In this document: piece after piece, positions 21,408 to 36,463 of the stretch | Layout: each line of letters begins with the position of its first letter | Position numbering within the stretch: position 1 is the stretch's first letter | DNA from: Escherichia coli | Lineage (GTDB): Bacteria > Pseudomonadota > Gammaproteobacteria > Enterobacterales > Enterobacteriaceae | Strand: one strand, 5' to 3' | DNA: 64,000 nucleotides | Assembly: GCF_046105845.1 (NCBI RefSeq) | Contig: NZ_CP151004.1 | The notes under the pieces: generated by a model | What the model was told of the DNA's origin: nothing | The model's input: only the letters and a program-made list of their open reading frames with translations | Databases searched by the model: none | Position numbers and translations under genes: made by a program

Positions 21408-21484
21408 GGCTACGTAGCTCAGTTGGTTAGAGCACATCACTCATAATGATGGGGTCACAGGTTCGAATCCCGTCGTAGCCACCA
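21408..21484 (+). tRNA. metT: tRNA-Met (CAU), elongator
   Basis: GGCTACGTAGCTCAGTTGGTTAGAGC...CTCATAA anticodon loop...GTAGCCACCA; cloverleaf, encoded CCA. Confidence 0.9.
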
Positions 21485-21492
21485 TCTTTTTT

Positions 21493-21577
21493 GCGGGAGT
21501 GGCGAAATTGGTAGACGCACCAGATTTAGGTTCTGGCGCCGCAAGGTGTGCGAGTTCAAGTCTCGCCTCCCGCACCA
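21493..21577 (+). tRNA. leuW: tRNA-Leu (UAG), long variable arm
   Basis: GCGGGAGTGGCGAAATTGGTAGACGCACCAGATTTAGGTTCTGG...CGCACCA; anticodon TAG. Confidence 0.9.
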
Positions 21578-21600
21578 TTCACCAGAAAGCGTTGTACGGA

Positions 21601-21675
21601 TGGGGTATCGCCAAGCGGTAAGGCACCGGTTTTTGATACCGGCATTCCCTGGTTCGAATCCAGGTACCCCAGCCA
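21601..21675 (+). tRNA. glnU: tRNA-Gln (UUG)
   Basis: TGGGGTATCGCCAAGCGGTAAGGCACCGGTTTTTGATACCGG...CCCCAGCCA; anticodon TTG. Confidence 0.9.
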
Positions 21676-21709
21676 TCTTCTTCGAGTAAGCGGTTCACCG
21701 CCCGGTTAT

Positions 21710-21784
21710 TGGGGTATCGCCAAGCGGTAAGGCACCGGTTTTTGATACCGGCATTCCCTGGTTCGAATCCAGGTACCCCAGCCA
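21710..21784 (+). tRNA. glnW: tRNA-Gln (UUG), second copy
   Basis: Identical sequence to the copy at 21601. Confidence 0.9.
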
Positions 21785-21799
21785 TCGAAGAAACAATCT

Positions 21800-21876
21800 G
21801 GCTACGTAGCTCAGTTGGTTAGAGCACATCACTCATAATGATGGGGTCACAGGTTCGAATCCCGTCGTAGCCACCA
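21800..21876 (+). tRNA. metU: tRNA-Met (CAU), elongator, second copy
   Basis: Identical sequence to the copy at 21408. Confidence 0.9.
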
Positions 21877-21924
21877 AATTCTGAATGTGTCGAATAAGTT
21901 CGGCAAATTCACAAACCAATTTGT

Positions 21925-21999
21925 TGGGGTATCGCCAAGCGGTAAGGCACCGGATTCTGATTCCGGCATTCCGAGGTTCGAATCCTCGTACCCCAGCCA
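21925..21999 (+). tRNA. glnV: tRNA-Gln (CUG)
   Basis: TGGGGTATCGCCAAGCGGTAAGGCACCGGATTCTGATTCCGG...; anticodon CTG. Confidence 0.9.
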
Positions 22000-22036
22000 A
22001 TTTATTCAAGACGCTTACCTTGTAAGTGCACCCAGT

Positions 22037-22111
22037 TGGGGTATCGCCAAGCGGTAAGGCACCGGATTCTGATTCCGGCATTCCGAGGTTCGAATCCTCG
22101 TACCCCAGCCA
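22037..22111 (+). tRNA. glnX: tRNA-Gln (CUG), second copy
   Basis: Identical sequence to the copy at 21925. Confidence 0.9.
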
Positions 22112-29333: not shown

Positions 29334-31211
29334 TTACGGTTCAGGGATACAAGCCACATTGCCATATTGGGGATGACGAATAATTGCCTGCGGATCAAGC
29401 GAGCGCGTCCTGTCCAGTTGGATTAACCCGTTCTTCGCCATAACAAATATTTTTCTACCATCCGCTGAAAAACGAAGGTGATTAACGTAGCTGGCAGGAT
29501 AAACGCCAATAATCTGCCCGGCATTAATATTGAGCTGGATGACATAACCTTGCAGGCCATATGACACCAACGCTAAATATTGACCGTCCGGGCTAATACC
29601 CTCAACGGAATAAACGCTCCTGCTACACCATTGCGTCATAATACTGGCTTGTTGATCCTCAGCTCTTATACGTGAAATCCCCTGGCTATCGGCAAAAATA
29701 ATCTCTCCATTTTTTGGTCGGAATCCCATCGCAGAAACGACACCACGCGCATCACCTGCGGGAAAGTCTTCTTTCTGATGCGTGATGGTATTGATGCGTA
29801 CAATGTCACCTCTGACCATACCGGGTATCAACAATGTTTTTTCATCCGGGGAAAGTGCCATAACCCAGGCACCAGGTTTATTACTCGTCCCCGTCCCGTC
29901 GTATTTCTCCAGCGGGATATCCGCCACATGCTGATAAGTCACCAGATCAATGGCTGACACACTATTACTGGTGCGATTCATCACCCAAGCTTTTGTGCCA
30001 TCACGCGAGAGGATAAGACTGTCAGGATGTGCACCGGTGGTAATCGACTGAATAATCTCCCCCGTCGCCACGTTAATGACCGATAACGCATTCGCTTCAA
30101 ATGAAGTCGCATAAAGCAACGTTTCATCCGGGCTTAGCGCCAGCGATCTGACGCCCTGATCTTTACAGCCACCACAATGTTTGACTGACTTTTCTTTCGC
30201 TATGGGGGCTGTAAAGGTATGCAGGATTTTCTTTTGTCCGAGGTCGAAAACAACAATGCTGTTGGTGTTTTCAATTGCGGCATACAACGTATTACCATCC
30301 CGACTGATCGCCATATCATGGATATCGGAAATCTCAGCGAGCAAATCACCACTGGCCTGTTCACGACTTACCGGAGCGGATAATGTTTCCCTGAGGGCGT
30401 TGCGTTCCTCCGCTAACTGCTGCTTTTTTTGCCGTCGCTCTTGTTCAATCTCCTGTGGATAAAACTCTTCACGCAGGCTTTGCCTGACTTGTAAAACTGA
30501 CTCACCCATCTGCTGCTGCGCAAGCCAGATAGCCCCGGTCAGAAGAAGACTACCCGCAACAATAATCCCGCCTTCCGTAACAAGCCGGTTTTGCCCATAT
30601 AAACGCGCACTCAGCCCCCCCATCGCGCCACCCGCAATCAGGCCGCCAATGTGGCAAGCGTTATCTATTCCTGTTTGCCGGGCACCGTACAACAGTGTCA
30701 GCGCCACCATACCCAGCAGAGGAAATACTCGCCGCTGGTTTTTATGGTGTGTGCCCGCACCTGAAGCAAGCTGTGTTGCTATCGCAGCGCCAGCTATTCC
30801 CATAATCGCCCCGGATGCCCCAACGCTGATGACTATCTGCTCACTTTCGCGTAACGCATAACAGGCACTGATTAGCCCACCAAAGACGCCGGAGAATAAC
30901 CAGATAATCAGAAGTCGCCATTTCCCCAGTATCCGCTCCGCCACTGCCCCCACCACCAGAAGTGCAAACATATTCATCAGCAAATGGGGAAAACTACTGT
31001 GCAGAAAGACACTGCTCAATAAGCGCCAGGATTCGCCCGACAACGTGAGAGAAGTAACGTTAGCACCGAGATGGATGAGTGCGGATTGATCGACTTCTTC
31101 ATAACTCATCCATTGTGCGAGGTAACAAAATATCCCAACACAGAGCGCAAAAAGGATAAGGGTTATTGCGGGTAATTGAACATTTAACGGCTTAACCGAA
31201 GATGCAGACAT
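29334..31211 (-). CDS. Rhomboid-family intramembrane serine protease (7 TM) fused via a charged linker to a C-terminal YVTN/YncE-like beta-propeller (625 aa); not a gene I recognise from E. coli K-12
   Basis: Single 625-codon ORF. N-terminal residues 1-235: rhomboid motifs WR (62-63), HxxxN (H76, N80), GASG with catalytic Ser133, ACHIGG with His187, plus seventh hydrophobic helix 216-232. Residues 240-285 charged (EEFYPQEIEQERRQKKQQLAEERNALRE). Residues 286-625: about seven repeats of [LI]S[PR]DG..[LI]...N......[IV]D-type beta-strand blades. Confidence 0.85.
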   Translation of the reverse strand: MSASSVKPLNVQLPAITLILFALCVGIFCYLAQWMSYEEVDQSALIHLGANVTSLTLSGESWRLLSSVFLHSSFPHLLMNMFALLVVGAVAERILGKWRLLIIWLFSGVFGGLISACYALRESEQIVISVGASGAIMGIAGAAIATQLASGAGTHHKNQRRVFPLLGMVALTLLYGARQTGIDNACHIGGLIAGGAMGGLSARLYGQNRLVTEGGIIVAGSLLLTGAIWLAQQQMGESVLQVRQSLREEFYPQEIEQERRQKKQQLAEERNALRETLSAPVSREQASGDLLAEISDIHDMAISRDGNTLYAAIENTNSIVVFDLGQKKILHTFTAPIAKEKSVKHCGGCKDQGVRSLALSPDETLLYATSFEANALSVINVATGEIIQSITTGAHPDSLILSRDGTKAWVMNRTSNSVSAIDLVTYQHVADIPLEKYDGTGTSNKPGAWVMALSPDEKTLLIPGMVRGDIVRINTITHQKEDFPAGDARGVVSAMGFRPKNGEIIFADSQGISRIRAEDQQASIMTQWCSRSVYSVEGISPDGQYLALVSYGLQGYVIQLNINAGQIIGVYPASYVNHLRFSADGRKIFVMAKNGLIQLDRTRSLDPQAIIRHPQYGNVACIPEP

Positions 31212-31384: not shown

Positions 31385-31451
31385 TTATTTACTGTGTAAG
31401 CAATGAAATCAGCCGCGACGCAACCGGGTTGCACCACCACAAATCAGCGGT

Positions 31452-31468
31452 AGCACCAAAAAGGTGCA
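31452..31468. promoter_or_regulatory. Candidate NtrC (GlnG) enhancer site in the rhomboid-gltI divergent region
   Basis: aGCACCAaaaaGGTGCA matches TGCACCA-N3-TGGTGCA at 15 of 17 positions; further GCACC/GGTGC half-sites at 31430-31436 and 31491-31496. Confidence 0.45.
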
Positions 31469-31665
31469 GTTTAAGAATTTTGCTTCGGAATGGTGCGGCG
31501 CAACTCGCAAAAACAAACAATAAAACAGCAATATCTTTACATTTAGCCAAACTAAATGTTACCTAACAGGCACAACACTGCACAATAAAGTTGCAGACGA
31601 TAACAACACAAACACTCACAACGGGTATCCATGCGTTCTTAACGCAGAAGATAAAGGAGTTGGAT

Positions 31666-32574
31666 ATGCAATTACGTAAACCTGCCACAGCAATCCTGGC
31701 CCTGGCGCTTTCCGCAGGACTGGCACAGGCAGATGACGCCGCCCCGGCAGCGGGCAGTACGCTGGACAAAATCGCCAAAAACGGTGTGATTGTCGTCGGT
31801 CACCGTGAATCTTCAGTACCTTTCTCTTATTACGACAATCAGCAAAAAGTGGTGGGTTACTCGCAGGATTACTCCAACGCCATTGTTGAAGCAGTGAAAA
31901 AGAAACTCAACAAACCAGACTTGCAGGTGAAACTGATTCCGATCACCTCACAAAACCGTATTCCACTGCTGCAAAACGGCACTTTCGATTTTGAATGTGG
32001 TTCTACCACCAACAACGTCGAACGCCAAAAACAGGCGGCTTTCTCTGACACTATTTTCGTGGTCGGTACGCGCCTGTTGACCAAAAAGGGTGGCGATATC
32101 AAAGATTTCGCCGATCTGAAAGGCAAAGCCGTAGTCGTCACTTCCGGCACTACCTCTGAAGTTTTGCTCAACAAACTGAATGAAGAGCAAAAAATGAATA
32201 TGCGAATTATCAGCGCCAAAGATCACGGTGACTCTTTCCGCACCCTGGAAAGCGGTCGTGCCGTTGCCTTTATGATGGATGATGCTCTGCTGGCTGGTGA
32301 ACGTGCGAAAGCGAAGAAACCAGACAACTGGGAAATCGTCGGCAAGCCGCAGTCTCAGGAAGCCTACGGTTGTATGTTGCGTAAAGACGATCCGCAGTTC
32401 AAAAAGCTGATGGATGACACTATCGCTCAGGTGCAGACCTCCGGTGAAGCGGAAAAATGGTTTGATAAATGGTTCAAAAATCCCATTCCGCCGAAAAACC
32501 TGAACATGAATTTCGAACTGTCGGACGAAATGAAAGCACTGTTCAAAGAACCGAATGACAAAGCACTGAACTAA
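31666..32574 (+). CDS. gltI: Glutamate/aspartate ABC transporter periplasmic binding protein GltI (302 aa)
   Basis: ORF 31591..32574; ATG 31666 preceded by AAGGAG gives MQLRKPATAILALALSAGLAQA... signal peptide. Confidence 0.95.
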   Translation: MQLRKPATAILALALSAGLAQADDAAPAAGSTLDKIAKNGVIVVGHRESSVPFSYYDNQQKVVGYSQDYSNAIVEAVKKKLNKPDLQVKLIPITSQNRIPLLQNGTFDFECGSTTNNVERQKQAAFSDTIFVVGTRLLTKKGGDIKDFADLKGKAVVVTSGTTSEVLLNKLNEEQKMNMRIISAKDHGDSFRTLESGRAVAFMMDDALLAGERAKAKKPDNWEIVGKPQSQEAYGCMLRKDDPQFKKLMDDTIAQVQTSGEAEKWFDKWFKNPIPPKNLNMNFELSDEMKALFKEPNDKALN

Positions 32575-32577
32575 TTA

Positions 32578-32731
32578 CAAGAACCAGGGGCGGAAATTCC
32601 AGCCCTCTCGATTGTTACGTAGCACGGACAGACTATACGCCTGATGGTCGTTCCCCATCGGGCCTGAAAACCGCAATACGCTGGGTAACAATCTTCGAGG
32701 GTAGCAGTTAACGCTGCTACCCTCTTTTTTC
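32578..32731 (+). ncRNA. sroC: SroC sRNA (GcvB sponge) processed from the gltI-gltJ spacer
   Basis: Conserved gltI-gltJ intergenic region ending in terminator GGGTAGCAGttaacGCTGCTACCCtctttttt; position matches the known SroC locus. Confidence 0.6.
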
Positions 32732-32743
32732 TGGAGTAGATTT

Positions 32744-33484
32744 ATGTCTATAGACTGGAACTGGGGTATTTTTTTACAACAAGCCCCGTTCGGCAACACC
32801 ACCTATCTTGGTTGGATCTGGAGTGGTTTTCAGGTCACGATCGCTTTGTCGATCTGCGCCTGGATTATCGCTTTCCTCGTCGGTTCATTTTTCGGCATTT
32901 TACGTACCGTTCCAAACCGTTTTCTCTCCGGTCTGGGTACGTTGTATGTCGAACTGTTCCGCAACGTGCCGTTGATTGTGCAATTCTTTACCTGGTATCT
33001 GGTGATCCCGGAGCTGCTGCCGGAGAAAATCGGCATGTGGTTTAAGGCCGAGCTGGATCCCAATATTCAGTTTTTCCTTTCATCCATGCTCTGCCTGGGG
33101 CTGTTTACCGCCGCCCGTGTTTGCGAACAGGTACGCGCCGCGATCCAGTCGCTGCCGCGTGGGCAGAAGAATGCCGCGCTGGCGATGGGTCTGACGCTGC
33201 CGCAGGCTTACCGCTATGTACTGTTGCCTAATGCTTATCGCGTTATCGTCCCGCCGATGACCTCCGAGATGATGAACCTGGTGAAAAACTCCGCCATCGC
33301 CTCGACCATCGGTCTGGTGGATATGGCGGCGCAGGCGGGTAAATTGCTCGACTACTCGGCCCACGCCTGGGAGTCGTTTACCGCCATCACGCTGGCGTAT
33401 GTGTTGATTAACGCGGTTATCATGCTGGTAATGACGCTGGTTGAACGTAAAGTTCGCCTGCCCGGCAACATGGGGGGCAAATAA
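32744..33484 (+). CDS. gltJ: Glutamate/aspartate ABC transporter permease GltJ (246 aa)
   Basis: [35 protein letters not shown]..., polar amino-acid permease family. Confidence 0.95.
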
Positions 33485-34158
33485 TGTACGAGTTTGACTG
33501 GAGTTCCATTGTCCCTTCCCTGCCATATCTGCTCGACGGGCTGGTGATCACCCTGAAAATCACCGTCACGGCAGTCGTGATTGGTATTTTGTGGGGCACC
33601 ATGCTGGCGGTGATGCGCTTGTCCAGCTTTGCGCCCGTAGCGTGGTTTGCCAAAGCCTACGTTAACGTATTCCGCTCGATTCCTTTAGTTATGGTTTTGC
33701 TGTGGTTTTACCTGATTGTGCCGGGTTTTCTGCAAAACGTGCTGGGATTATCGCCAAAAAATGATATCCGTTTAATTTCGGCGATGGTGGCGTTTTCGAT
33801 GTTTGAAGCGGCCTACTATTCAGAGATTATCCGCGCCGGTATTCAAAGTATTTCTCGTGGTCAGTCGAGCGCCGCGCTGGCGTTGGGGATGACTCACTGG
33901 CAGTCGATGAAACTGATTATTCTGCCGCAGGCGTTCCGCGCGATGGTGCCGCTGCTGCTCACTCAGGGCATCGTACTGTTCCAGGATACCTCACTGGTGT
34001 ATGTGTTATCTCTGGCCGATTTCTTCCGTACCGCCTCAACCATTGGTGAGCGTGATGGTACGCAGGTTGAGATGATCCTGTTTGCCGGATTTGTTTATTT
34101 CGTTATTAGCCTTAGCGCATCGTTGTTGGTCAGCTACTTGAAAAGAAGGACAGCATAA
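33484..34158 (+). CDS. gltK: Glutamate/aspartate ABC transporter permease GltK (224 aa)
   Basis: [31 protein letters not shown]...; start overlaps gltJ stop (TAATG). Confidence 0.95.
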
Positions 34159-34883
34159 TGATTACCCTGAAAAATGTTTCAAAATGGTATGGTCACTTTC
34201 AGGTGCTGACCGACTGCTCAACCGAAGTGAAAAAAGGCGAAGTGGTGGTGGTTTGCGGCCCGTCTGGTTCCGGCAAATCAACGCTGATTAAAACCGTCAA
34301 CGGCCTCGAACCGGTGCAGCAAGGTGAAATCACCGTCGATGGCATCGTGGTTAACGACAAGAAAACCGATCTGGCAAAGCTGCGTTCCCGCGTCGGGATG
34401 GTGTTCCAGCATTTCGAGTTGTTCCCCCATTTGTCGATTATTGAAAACCTGACCCTGGCGCAGGTGAAAGTGCTTAAACGCGATAAAGCACCCGCTCGTG
34501 AAAAAGCATTGAAATTGCTGGAGCGCGTCGGGCTTTCCGCACATGCCAATAAGTTTCCGGCGCAGCTTTCCGGCGGTCAGCAGCAGCGTGTGGCGATCGC
34601 TCGCGCATTGTGCATGGATCCTATCGCGATGCTGTTCGACGAACCGACATCGGCGCTGGATCCGGAGATGATCAACGAAGTGCTGGACGTGATGGTGGAA
34701 CTGGCGAACGAAGGAATGACCATGATGGTGGTGACCCACGAAATGGGCTTTGCCCGTAAAGTGGCGAATCGGGTGATCTTTATGGACGAGGGTAAAATTG
34801 TCGAAGACTCGCCGAAAGACGCTTTCTTCGATGATCCGAAATCGGACCGCGCAAAAGACTTCCTCGCGAAAATCCTGCATTAA
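34158..34883 (+). CDS. gltL: Glutamate/aspartate ABC transporter ATP-binding protein GltL (241 aa)
   Basis: [45 protein letters not shown]..., Walker A, LSGGQQQR signature. Confidence 0.95.
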
Positions 34884-35000
34884 TCACTCTGGCGCGCATA
34901 CCCAATTGCGCGCCATCTCACGCTTTATCGTTTCGCCCCTCGTATCTGTTACATCCTGGCGTTACCCTTGTCGCAAAGAAGCACACAACAAGGAGCAACA

Positions 35001-35936
35001 ATGGCACTGCCAATTCTGTTAGATTGCGACCCAGGTCATGACGACGCTATCGCAATAGTTCTCGCCCTCGCCTCACCAGAGCTTGATGTCAAAGCAATTA
35101 CGTCTTCCGCCGGAAACCAGACACCAGAAAAAACCTTACGCAATGTTCTGCGTATGCTGACCTTGCTTAATCGCACCGATATTCCGGTAGCAGGCGGCGC
35201 GGTAAAACCGTTAATGCGTGAGTTGATTATCGCGGACAATGTGCACGGCGAAAGCGGTCTCGACGGCCCGGCATTACCGGAACCGACGTTCGCACCGCAA
35301 AACTGTACGGCGGTAGAGCTGATGGCGAAAACACTACGTGAAAGTGCGGAACCTGTCACGATTGTTTCTACCGGACCGCAAACTAACGTTGCCTTGCTGC
35401 TCAATAGCCACCCGGAACTGCATAGCAAAATTGCCCGTATCGTGATTATGGGCGGTGCAATGGGGCTTGGTAACTGGACGCCTGCGGCTGAATTTAATAT
35501 TTACGTTGACCCGGAAGCGGCAGAAATTGTCTTCCAGTCAGGGATCCCGGTGGTGATGGCCGGTCTGGATGTTACTCACAAAGCACAAATTCACGTTGAG
35601 GACACCGAGCGTTTCCGCGCCATTGGCAACCCTGTTTCAACCATTGTTGCCGAACTGCTGGATTTCTTCCTCGAATATCATAAAGACGAAAAATGGGGCT
35701 TTGTCGGCGCACCGCTGCATGACCCATGCACCATCGCCTGGCTGTTAAAACCGGAGTTGTTTACCACTGTTGAGCGCTGGGTTGGCGTGGAAACACAAGG
35801 GAAATATACCCAGGGTATGACGGTTGTTGATTATTATTATCTGACCGGCAATAAACCGAATGCTACTGTAATGGTCGATGTTGATCGTCAGGGCTTTGTT
35901 GATTTACTGGCTGATCGTCTGAAATTTTACGCTTAA
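35001..35936 (+). CDS. rihA: Pyrimidine-specific ribonucleoside hydrolase RihA (311 aa)
   Basis: ORF 34968..35936; ATG 35001 gives [22 protein letters not shown]..., DxDxxxDD nucleoside hydrolase motif. Confidence 0.95.
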
Positions 35937-35942
35937 TCACTC

Positions 35943-35967
35943 GCCGGATGACATCACGCCATCCGGC
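35943..35967. repeat. Short REP-like hairpin in the 44-bp rihA-ybeL spacer
   Basis: GCCGGATGacatcacgcCATCCGGC. Confidence 0.4.
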
Positions 35968-35980
35968 ACCACTCATTTCA

Positions 35981-36463
35981 TTAAGGCTCGAACGGGCGTC
36001 TCTGGAACTGGTCATGACCACATTTCGGGCATAGCGTCAGCACTTCCGGTGTATAGATCGGGAGATGGAAATGACATTTCTCGCAGACCAGATTTCCCAG
36101 CCCTACCACTTCTCCGCTGTGATAAACCCCGTGATGATTGAGGTCCTGGAAAACTTCGCGCCATTCAAGCTGCGTTTTATCGGTGATGTCTGCCAGCTCC
36201 TGCCACAAGCTTTCTTTAATCACCCGCATAAAGACGCTGTCAGACTCTTCTTTCAGGCTCTCTTCATAGCTCATGGCGAACTCTTCCAGGTCACGTCTGA
36301 CAGCTCGCGTCAGCTCATCGACTTCGGTTCGCGTTAACTCCCCTGTTTTTATTACGCGCTCGCGCGCCTGTTCCACCAGTGCGTCGATATCACGTTCGCC
36401 ATTGCGCAGGCGTTCGCTCAGTGACGCGACCAGTTCACGGTAATATTGAGCAACCTTGTTCAT
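35981..36463 (-). CDS. ybeL: DUF1451 zinc-ribbon protein YbeL (160 aa)
   Basis: ORF MNKVAQYYRELVASLSERLRNGERDIDALVEQ..., C-terminal CxxC...CPxCG. Confidence 0.9.
   Translation of the reverse strand: MNKVAQYYRELVASLSERLRNGERDIDALVEQARERVIKTGELTRTEVDELTRAVRRDLEEFAMSYEESLKEESDSVFMRVIKESLWQELADITDKTQLEWREVFQDLNHHGVYHSGEVVGLGNLVCEKCHFHLPIYTPEVLTLCPKCGHDQFQRRPFEP

Follow-up and report, generated by a model that had tools for sequence, protein, structure and literature searches.

The spacer between gltI and gltJ in the analysed stretch of 64,000 nucleotides of Escherichia coli DNA (contig NZ_CP151004.1, assembly GCF_046105845.1; hereafter the window) is the chromosomal locus of the small RNA SroC, an identification to which we give a probability of about 97%. 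When the whole window was compared to Rfam 15, the sroC family (RF00369) matched on the plus strand over its full length (32570-32732, model positions 1-163 of 163), with a score of 174.8 bits against a gathering score of 45 (E = 7.4e-37). The matched sequence is identical at 163 of 163 positions to sroC of E. coli K-12 MG1655 (b4763, NC_000913.3 686681-686843). The curated K-12 record describes a 163-nt ncRNA between gltI and gltJ that overlaps the end of gltI by 5 nt, and the window copy has the same geometry: it lies in the spacer on the operon strand, its 5' end is 5 nt inside the 3' end of gltI and its 3' end is 11 nt before the gltJ ATG.

The original prediction, made from the letters of the window, had named SroC, measured the spacer at 169 bp and suggested a covariance-model search as a check. 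That search gave the strong Rfam match described above, the name is borne out by the full-length match and by the identity with K-12, and the spacer is indeed 169 bp long (32575-32743, between the gltI TAA at 32572-32574 and the gltJ ATG at 32744). The span proposed for the RNA, 32578-32731, has to be widened at both ends to the boundaries given by Rfam and by the K-12 annotation.

SroC is already known, a textbook case, and the locus offers no new biology. In every non-K-12 record that we examined, the automatic RefSeq (PGAP) annotation shows only gltI and gltJ under this stretch, and among the examined records sroC is named in the curated K-12 record only. Flagging SroC here fills an annotation gap, and the value of doing so is that of a correct annotation. 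The RNA is a model for an mRNA-derived sponge that controls GcvB, the master amino-acid sRNA, and its 3' end is a model for a leaky terminator with a dual role inside an operon. The references for SroC are Vogel 2003 and Miyakoshi 2015.

Table 1 Features of the sroC locus and of the gltIJKL operon in the window
Feature	Coordinates	Strand	Basis
C/A-rich element in the gltI 5' UTR (AACAACACAAACACTCACAAC), -64 to -44 from the ATG	31602..31622	+	sequence reading
gltI	31666..32574	+	ORF list, 302 aa; Pfam SBP_bac_3, E = 6e-29; annotated gltI in matching E. coli records
SroC sRNA, 163 nt	32570..32732	+	RF00369; identity with K-12 b4763; MFE z = -6.5
Stem-loop 1 (SL1; SroC nt 18-37)	32587..32606	+	MFE structure
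Stem-loop 2 (SL2; SroC nt 41-124), long hairpin presenting both GcvB sites	32610..32693	+	MFE structure; RNAalifold
BS2, GGACAGAC (SroC nt 57-64)	32626..32633	+	exact 8-nt complement of K-12 GcvB 156-163 (R3/SL4)
BS1, UCGUUCC (SroC nt 79-85), SL2 apical loop	32648..32654	+	exact 7-nt complement of K-12 GcvB 13-19 (SL1)
Intrinsic (Rho-independent) terminator	32697..32730	+	terminator scan; hairpin 32697-32724 and T6 32725-32730
gltJ Shine-Dalgarno (GGAG, 32733-32736) and ATG (32744-32746)	32733..32746	+	sequence reading
gltJ	32744-33484	+	ORF list; Pfam BPD_transp_1; K-12 and strain 746 annotation
gltK	33484-34158	+	ORF list; Pfam BPD_transp_1; K-12 and strain 746 annotation
gltL	34158-34883	+	ORF list; Pfam ABC_tran; K-12 and strain 746 annotation

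Conservation, structure and GcvB pairing sites

The 163-nt sequence was found in 5421 of 5426 complete E. coli genomes, with a median of one copy per genome and at least 99% identity in 5249 of them. A 501-bp query that includes the coding flanks reached at least 99% identity in 2694 genomes only, which indicates that SroC is more conserved than the coding sequence that adjoins it. In one genome per species we searched for the pattern AGCACGGAC-N12-20-GGTCGTTCCCCA, which matches the window once. The scan returned 51 loci (51 species genomes) from at least 13 genera of Enterobacteriaceae, namely Escherichia, Salmonella, Citrobacter, Enterobacter, Kluyvera, Klebsiella, Raoultella, Kosakonia, Phytobacter, Lelliottia, Pluralibacter, Huaxiibacter and Superficieibacter; this sample was picked by an sRNA pattern and is biased to close relatives, so the limits of the family lie beyond its reach. 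The C-terminus of GltI is directly upstream in all 51 loci, and wherever a locus reaches far enough (49 of 49 loci) the N-terminus of GltJ follows, 110-127 nt downstream of the start of the pattern match. A defective SroC homologue has been reported from Yersinia (PMC4474525).

The RNA folds far more stably than its composition demands. Its MFE is -66.3 kcal/mol, against -40.5 +/- 4.0 kcal/mol in 200 shuffled sequences (z = -6.5), none of which was as stable. The MFE fold consists of a short first stem-loop, the long SL2 and the terminator hairpin (SroC nt 128-155), and RNAalifold recovers SL2 from the alignment, where each pair of the upper stem is altered on both sides in 11-25 of the 50 sequences. 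The formal count of covariation was done on the MFE structure of the window SroC itself. Fourteen pairs were changed on both sides: two in helix 1, which is paired in 86.7% over 49 distinct sequences, and six and five in helices 2 and 5 of SL2 (88.9% and 97.1% paired), among others. Over the whole structure 91.1% of the cells were paired, compared to 85.5% after shuffling and 38-51% with slid partners; 131 cells were changed on both sides (shuffled 46.8 +/- 5.7, slid partners 9-43), and the covariation score was 0.192 (slid partners 0.04-0.06), a value that none of 500 shuffled alignments reached (0.095). The secondary structure of SroC is thus conserved and is supported by compensatory changes. 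The terminator core is invariant and adds nothing to this evidence. The Rfam consensus lengthens the base of SL2 by UCUCG/CGAGG, a helix that would overlap the 5' arm of the terminator; in an alignment judged by eye, its third position shows uncompensated changes in Raoultella/Klebsiella, in C. amalonaticus/Pluralibacter and in Enterobacter JUb54.

Both GcvB pairing sites are present on SL2 of the window SroC. Compared to K-12 GcvB, BS1 is a 7-nt site in the apical loop, complementary to GGAACGA at GcvB 13-19, and BS2 is an 8-nt site in an internal bulge, complementary to GUCUGUCC at GcvB 156-163; they are 14 nt apart, the spacing published for SroC (PMC4474525). In windowed duplex predictions BS2 with GcvB is the best local duplex (-23.3 kcal/mol) and BS1 the second (-21.3 kcal/mol). 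A duplex of the two RNAs over their whole length (RNAduplex, -78.8 kcal/mol, end-to-end) was discarded, as it ignores intramolecular structure. BS1 is unpaired with a probability of 1.0, and BS2 is partly unpaired with a mean of 0.59. Only 65% of the alignment cells keep the small helix by which BS2 would be sequestered, a value that fits the position of BS2 in an accessible bulge. The segment AGACTATA, which includes part of BS2 and its flank and was not constrained by the search pattern, is invariant in 50 sequences while the stems vary.

Complementarity to GcvB is not significant on its own: an 8-mer and a separate 7-mer within 30 nt occur in 9.4% of dinucleotide shuffles of SroC, and the functional assignment of the sites accordingly rests on their identity to the tested sequence. 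Further perfect 7-8-mers to GcvB exist within the stems of SroC. The stem of the SroC terminator, GGUAGC/GCUACC with its U-run (32699-32722), has the same sequence as an internal hairpin of GcvB (nt 114-129). This likeness is probably a coincidence, as the Rfam consensus for GcvB shows just moderate conservation of that hairpin. No convincing pairing site for MgrR was found in SroC, including the invariant segment before the terminator; the best match involves the terminator of MgrR.

Terminator and read-through into gltJKL

The consensus terminator scan found the hairpin GAGGGTAGCAGT-TAAC-GCTGCTACCCTC, with 12 pairs (7 of them G-C), a loop of 4 nt and a following TTTTTT, and a folding energy of -21.3 kcal/mol. 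Under weak criteria the scan reports 11 sites in 4 kb (5.3 expected), of which the SroC site is by far the strongest. The strong intrinsic terminator that had been predicted here is hence well founded, and the arms GGGTAGCAG and GCTGCTACCC named for it form the core of the longer stem. Two of its details needed correction. The proposed run of seven T is T-C-T6 (TCTTTTTT), the first two bases of which can still pair in the stem, and the distance to the gltJ start, put at 12 nt, is 13 nt from the end of T6 to the ATG (32731-32743), or 11 nt from the 3' end of SroC.

A Rho-independent terminator thus lies directly upstream of gltJ, where the 3' end of SroC is expected. It would define the 3' end of SroC and act as an attenuator of transcription into gltJKL; in Salmonella the 3' end of SroC is formed by a conserved Rho-independent terminator (PMC4474525), and by analogy the window terminator would both terminate transcription and leak. 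One gltIJKL promoter in Salmonella gives rise to the operon mRNA and, through the "leaky" terminator, to a short gltI mRNA (PMC4474525). The genes on the two sides of the hairpin encode a glutamate/aspartate transporter, with the permease and ATPase genes gltJ, gltK and gltL downstream of it. The stop and start codons of gltJ/gltK and of gltK/gltL overlap by 1 nt each, as expected of one translationally coupled unit. The Shine-Dalgarno sequence of gltJ, part of the conserved GGAGTAGATTTATG in the alignment, begins 3 nt past the T-tract, too close for a promoter to fit between terminator and gltJ. The suggestion that read-through must supply gltJKL agrees with this lack of space, with the overlapping gene junctions and with the published single promoter (PMC4474525). 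Read-through was shown in Salmonella, and by analogy the expression of gltJKL in the window strain is likely to depend on it as well, a supported reading. A scan of the plus strand for sigma-70-like sites between 31200 and 35200 found none; it also missed the promoter of gltI and is therefore uninformative about an internal promoter. In the main text of a study that mapped 3' ends in E. coli (PMC7815308), sroC, gltI and gltJ are not named.

The terminator core GGGTAGC/GCTACCC and about 12 nt before it (AATCTTCGAG, of which AAUCUUCGAG is a part) are invariant in 50 sequences from at least 13 genera (window 32690-32730), while SL1 and SL2 drift by compensatory changes. In Escherichia and Kluyvera an insertion lengthens the terminator stem from about 7-9 to 12 pairs (-13.1 to -21.3 kcal/mol). 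Invariance next to drifting stem-loops suggests a constraint on the sequence itself, and it is conceivable, if rather unlikely, that this constraint exceeds the need for any stable hairpin and reflects a site for a factor or an RNA that tunes termination, or a third module for pairing or Hfq contact. Extra conserved nucleotides were already noted by Miyakoshi et al. 2015, who speculated on regulated termination (PMC4474525). If such tuning of termination and read-through exists, it would set the ratio of SroC to gltJKL and act as a regulated switch of moderate interest.

Origin and function of SroC

The mechanism by which SroC is made and acts has been worked out mostly in Salmonella. SroC carries a 5' monophosphate there, and its 5' end inside gltI is no transcription start (Miyakoshi, Chao and Vogel 2015, PMC4474525). 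Its release from gltI-sroC requires RNase E, SroC is lost when RNase E is inactivated, and purified RNase E together with Hfq converts a 5'-monophosphorylated precursor to mature SroC in vitro (PMC4474525). Structure probing located the pairing with GcvB to two sites, one of 7 nt and one of 8 nt, separated by 14 nt in SroC and distant in GcvB, and deletion of sroC lengthened GcvB's half-life from 1.7 min to more than 15 min (PMC4474525). The E. coli pair of SroC and GcvB was reported to be equally functional (PMC4474525). SroC was present in 67,138 of 95,686 GcvB chimeric reads in E. coli RIL-seq in stationary phase (PMC9299463). E. coli SroC shortened GcvB's half-life from more than 16 min to 3.8 min, irrespective of the phosphorylation state of its 5' end, and was itself stable for more than 16 min (PMC10250213). 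A review lists MgrR as a second sRNA sponged by SroC, and fliE/flhBAE as mRNA targets (PMC9438474).

From this literature, which concerns an identical E. coli sequence and a Salmonella homologue, the processing, stability, Hfq dependence and GcvB decay described for SroC would extend to the window copy, and we infer that SroC is expressed in the window strain and that its gcvB, which lies outside the window, is normal. The mRNA of gltI is the parent transcript of SroC. Transcription would run from the gltI promoter through gltI, and a fraction of the polymerases would stop 13 nt upstream of gltJ, at a terminator that is strong yet leaky. RNase E, acting in a 5'-monophosphate-dependent manner and guided by Hfq, would then trim this short gltI transcript to the very stable 163-nt 3' fragment. 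By analogy, the source of SroC is the prematurely terminated gltI-sroC transcript. The original prediction, in which SroC is processed from the gltIJKL transcript, is right as to a processed fragment; as a refinement, the 3' end is made by the terminator and not by processing.

The mature RNA would pair with two distant regions of GcvB, through BS1 in the apical loop of SL2 and through BS2 in the internal bulge 14 nt upstream, and this pairing would lead to RNase E-dependent decay of GcvB. The predicted role as a GcvB sponge matches the primary literature (PMC4474525), and both published sites are intact at their published spacing. Decay of GcvB would lift repression from many mRNAs of amino-acid transport and metabolism, one of which is gltI, repressed by way of the C/A-rich site in its 5' UTR. 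The gltIJKL mRNA would come from polymerases that pass the terminator, and the same hairpin would set the excess of the binding protein over the membrane components.

The other arm of this SroC-GcvB-gltI loop is the C/A-rich element, a GcvB R1 target that lies upstream of the ribosome-binding site of gltI. The duplex of the gltI UTR with GcvB 56-100 has an energy of -45.7 kcal/mol, compared to -30.9 +/- 3.5 kcal/mol in 500 shuffles, none of which was as good. The element is identical in K-12 and strain 746, and was described as both a GcvB R1 target site and a translational enhancer (PMC4474525).

That the hairpin is only an attenuator inside the operon, which keeps GltI in excess over GltJKL while the RNA upstream of it is an inert by-product of decay, we consider very improbable. 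A terminator between the gene of a binding protein and those of the membrane components is in the usual place for control of stoichiometry, conservation is high both in the terminator and in the ribosome-binding site of gltJ, and the authors of PMC4474525 themselves assign attenuation to it besides the release of SroC. An attenuator, however, needs just a hairpin and a U-tract, and it leaves unexplained why invariant BS1 and BS2 sit on a covarying stem-loop of 84 nt, why chimeras of SroC dominate those of GcvB in E. coli RIL-seq (PMC9299463), and why SroC expressed alone destabilises GcvB. For Salmonella, point mutations in BS1 and BS2 that stabilise GcvB with termination unaffected, and their rescue by compensatory changes in GcvB, have been reported (PMC4474525). 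Attenuation is a real co-function of the SroC terminator and not an alternative to the sponge.

It is just as improbable that SroC is an independent gene with a promoter of its own within the 3' end of gltI, and no processing product. DapZ and MicL are 3' UTR sRNAs that are made in this manner (PMC4474525), and our insensitive promoter scan, to which the gltI promoter itself stayed invisible, counts little when it finds no sigma-70-like site on the plus strand between 31200 and 35200. The 5' monophosphate, the lack of a transcription start at the SroC 5' end, the dependence on RNase E and the maturation in vitro with RNase E and Hfq (PMC4474525) speak against such a promoter. Least probable by far is that the region is a REP-like repeated palindrome, a chance hairpin, or a coding part of the 75-aa ORF with a GTG start that the ORF list holds on the minus strand across the spacer (32575-32802). 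Intergenic palindromes are common in the operons of ABC transporters, but SroC is single-copy (E. coli genomes have it at a median of one place, and the pattern matches the window once) and a T-tract follows the hairpin on the plus strand only. Between orthologous spacers there are indels of 1, 7 and 9 nt as well as paired compensatory changes, a pattern that points to selection on RNA structure and not on coding; neither dispersed genomic copies of the region nor codon-periodic conservation on its minus strand was seen. The processed sponge RNA released from gltI remains our reading of the locus.

Genomic surroundings and known relatives

In K-12, the strain with the annotated SroC, the gltI promoter region has been rearranged by IS5D (window counterpart 31400-31665). 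The element lies about 100 nt upstream of the gltI ATG, in place of a native region that is common to the window and strain 746. Between lnt and gltI the window encodes, divergent from gltI, an ORF of 625 aa (29334-31211, minus strand) that combines a rhomboid domain at its N-terminus with a beta-propeller at its C-terminus. Its annotation reads "rhomboid family intramembrane serine protease". Of 5426 complete E. coli genomes, 3237 have it, at 90-99% identity only; strain 746 lacks it in the lnt-gltI spacer, and so does K-12 in the stretch that we examined. Downstream of the operon, rihA (an ORF of 322 aa) is immediately followed by an ORF of 160 aa on the minus strand (34968-36463), which is the rihA-ybeL arrangement of strain 746. 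In K-12 hscC adjoins rihA, and the window genome thus is without at least that K-12 block. In E. coli RM9088 a segment of 27 bp at the 3' end of gltI is duplicated in tandem and in frame (ALFKEPNDK is repeated; about window position 32537). The duplication lies about 30 nt upstream of the SroC 5' end, near the leader of about 20 nt that was reported to be necessary for RNase E processing, and the sroC of this strain is identical.

Elsewhere in the window, Rfam gave a full-length match to the cspA thermoregulator (RF01766; 53939-54297, minus strand) with 123 bits against a gathering score of 78 and many non-canonical pairs; it is presumably the mRNA of a cspA-family paralogue. Seven tRNA genes lie on the plus strand at 21408-22111, in the order Met(CAT), Leu(TAG), Gln(TTG) twice, Met(CAT) and Gln(CTG) twice.

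The window copy agrees with the known SroC (RF00369, b4763) in sequence, position, terminator, SL1 and SL2, and in the spacing of BS1 and BS2, and the sRNA shows no differences. The K-12 locus differs upstream, where K-12 has IS5D and the window an intact gltI upstream region together with the accessory rhomboid-family gene.

Like SroC, the chbBC spacer, which acts on ChiX, and 3'ETS-leuZ, which acts on RyhB and RybB, are by-products of longer transcripts that pair with an Hfq-bound sRNA and lower its activity. SroC uses two short sites, apart from each other, to bring about RNase E-dependent decay of its target, whereas the chbBC-ChiX case involves the ChiX terminator and PNPase. AgvB, an anti-GcvB RNA encoded by prophages of enterohaemorrhagic E. 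coli, is a GcvB antagonist as SroC is, but it addresses another region of GcvB and sequesters it without destabilising it, and it is a horizontally acquired, free-standing gene where SroC is a fragment of a core operon. The 3' UTR-derived sRNAs CpxQ, SdhX, NarS and MalH share with SroC the processing by RNase E, the 5' monophosphate, the association with Hfq and the use of the terminator of the parent mRNA. These RNAs come from the end of their operons and mainly repress mRNAs, whereas SroC arises inside an operon at a leaky terminator and has an sRNA as its main target.
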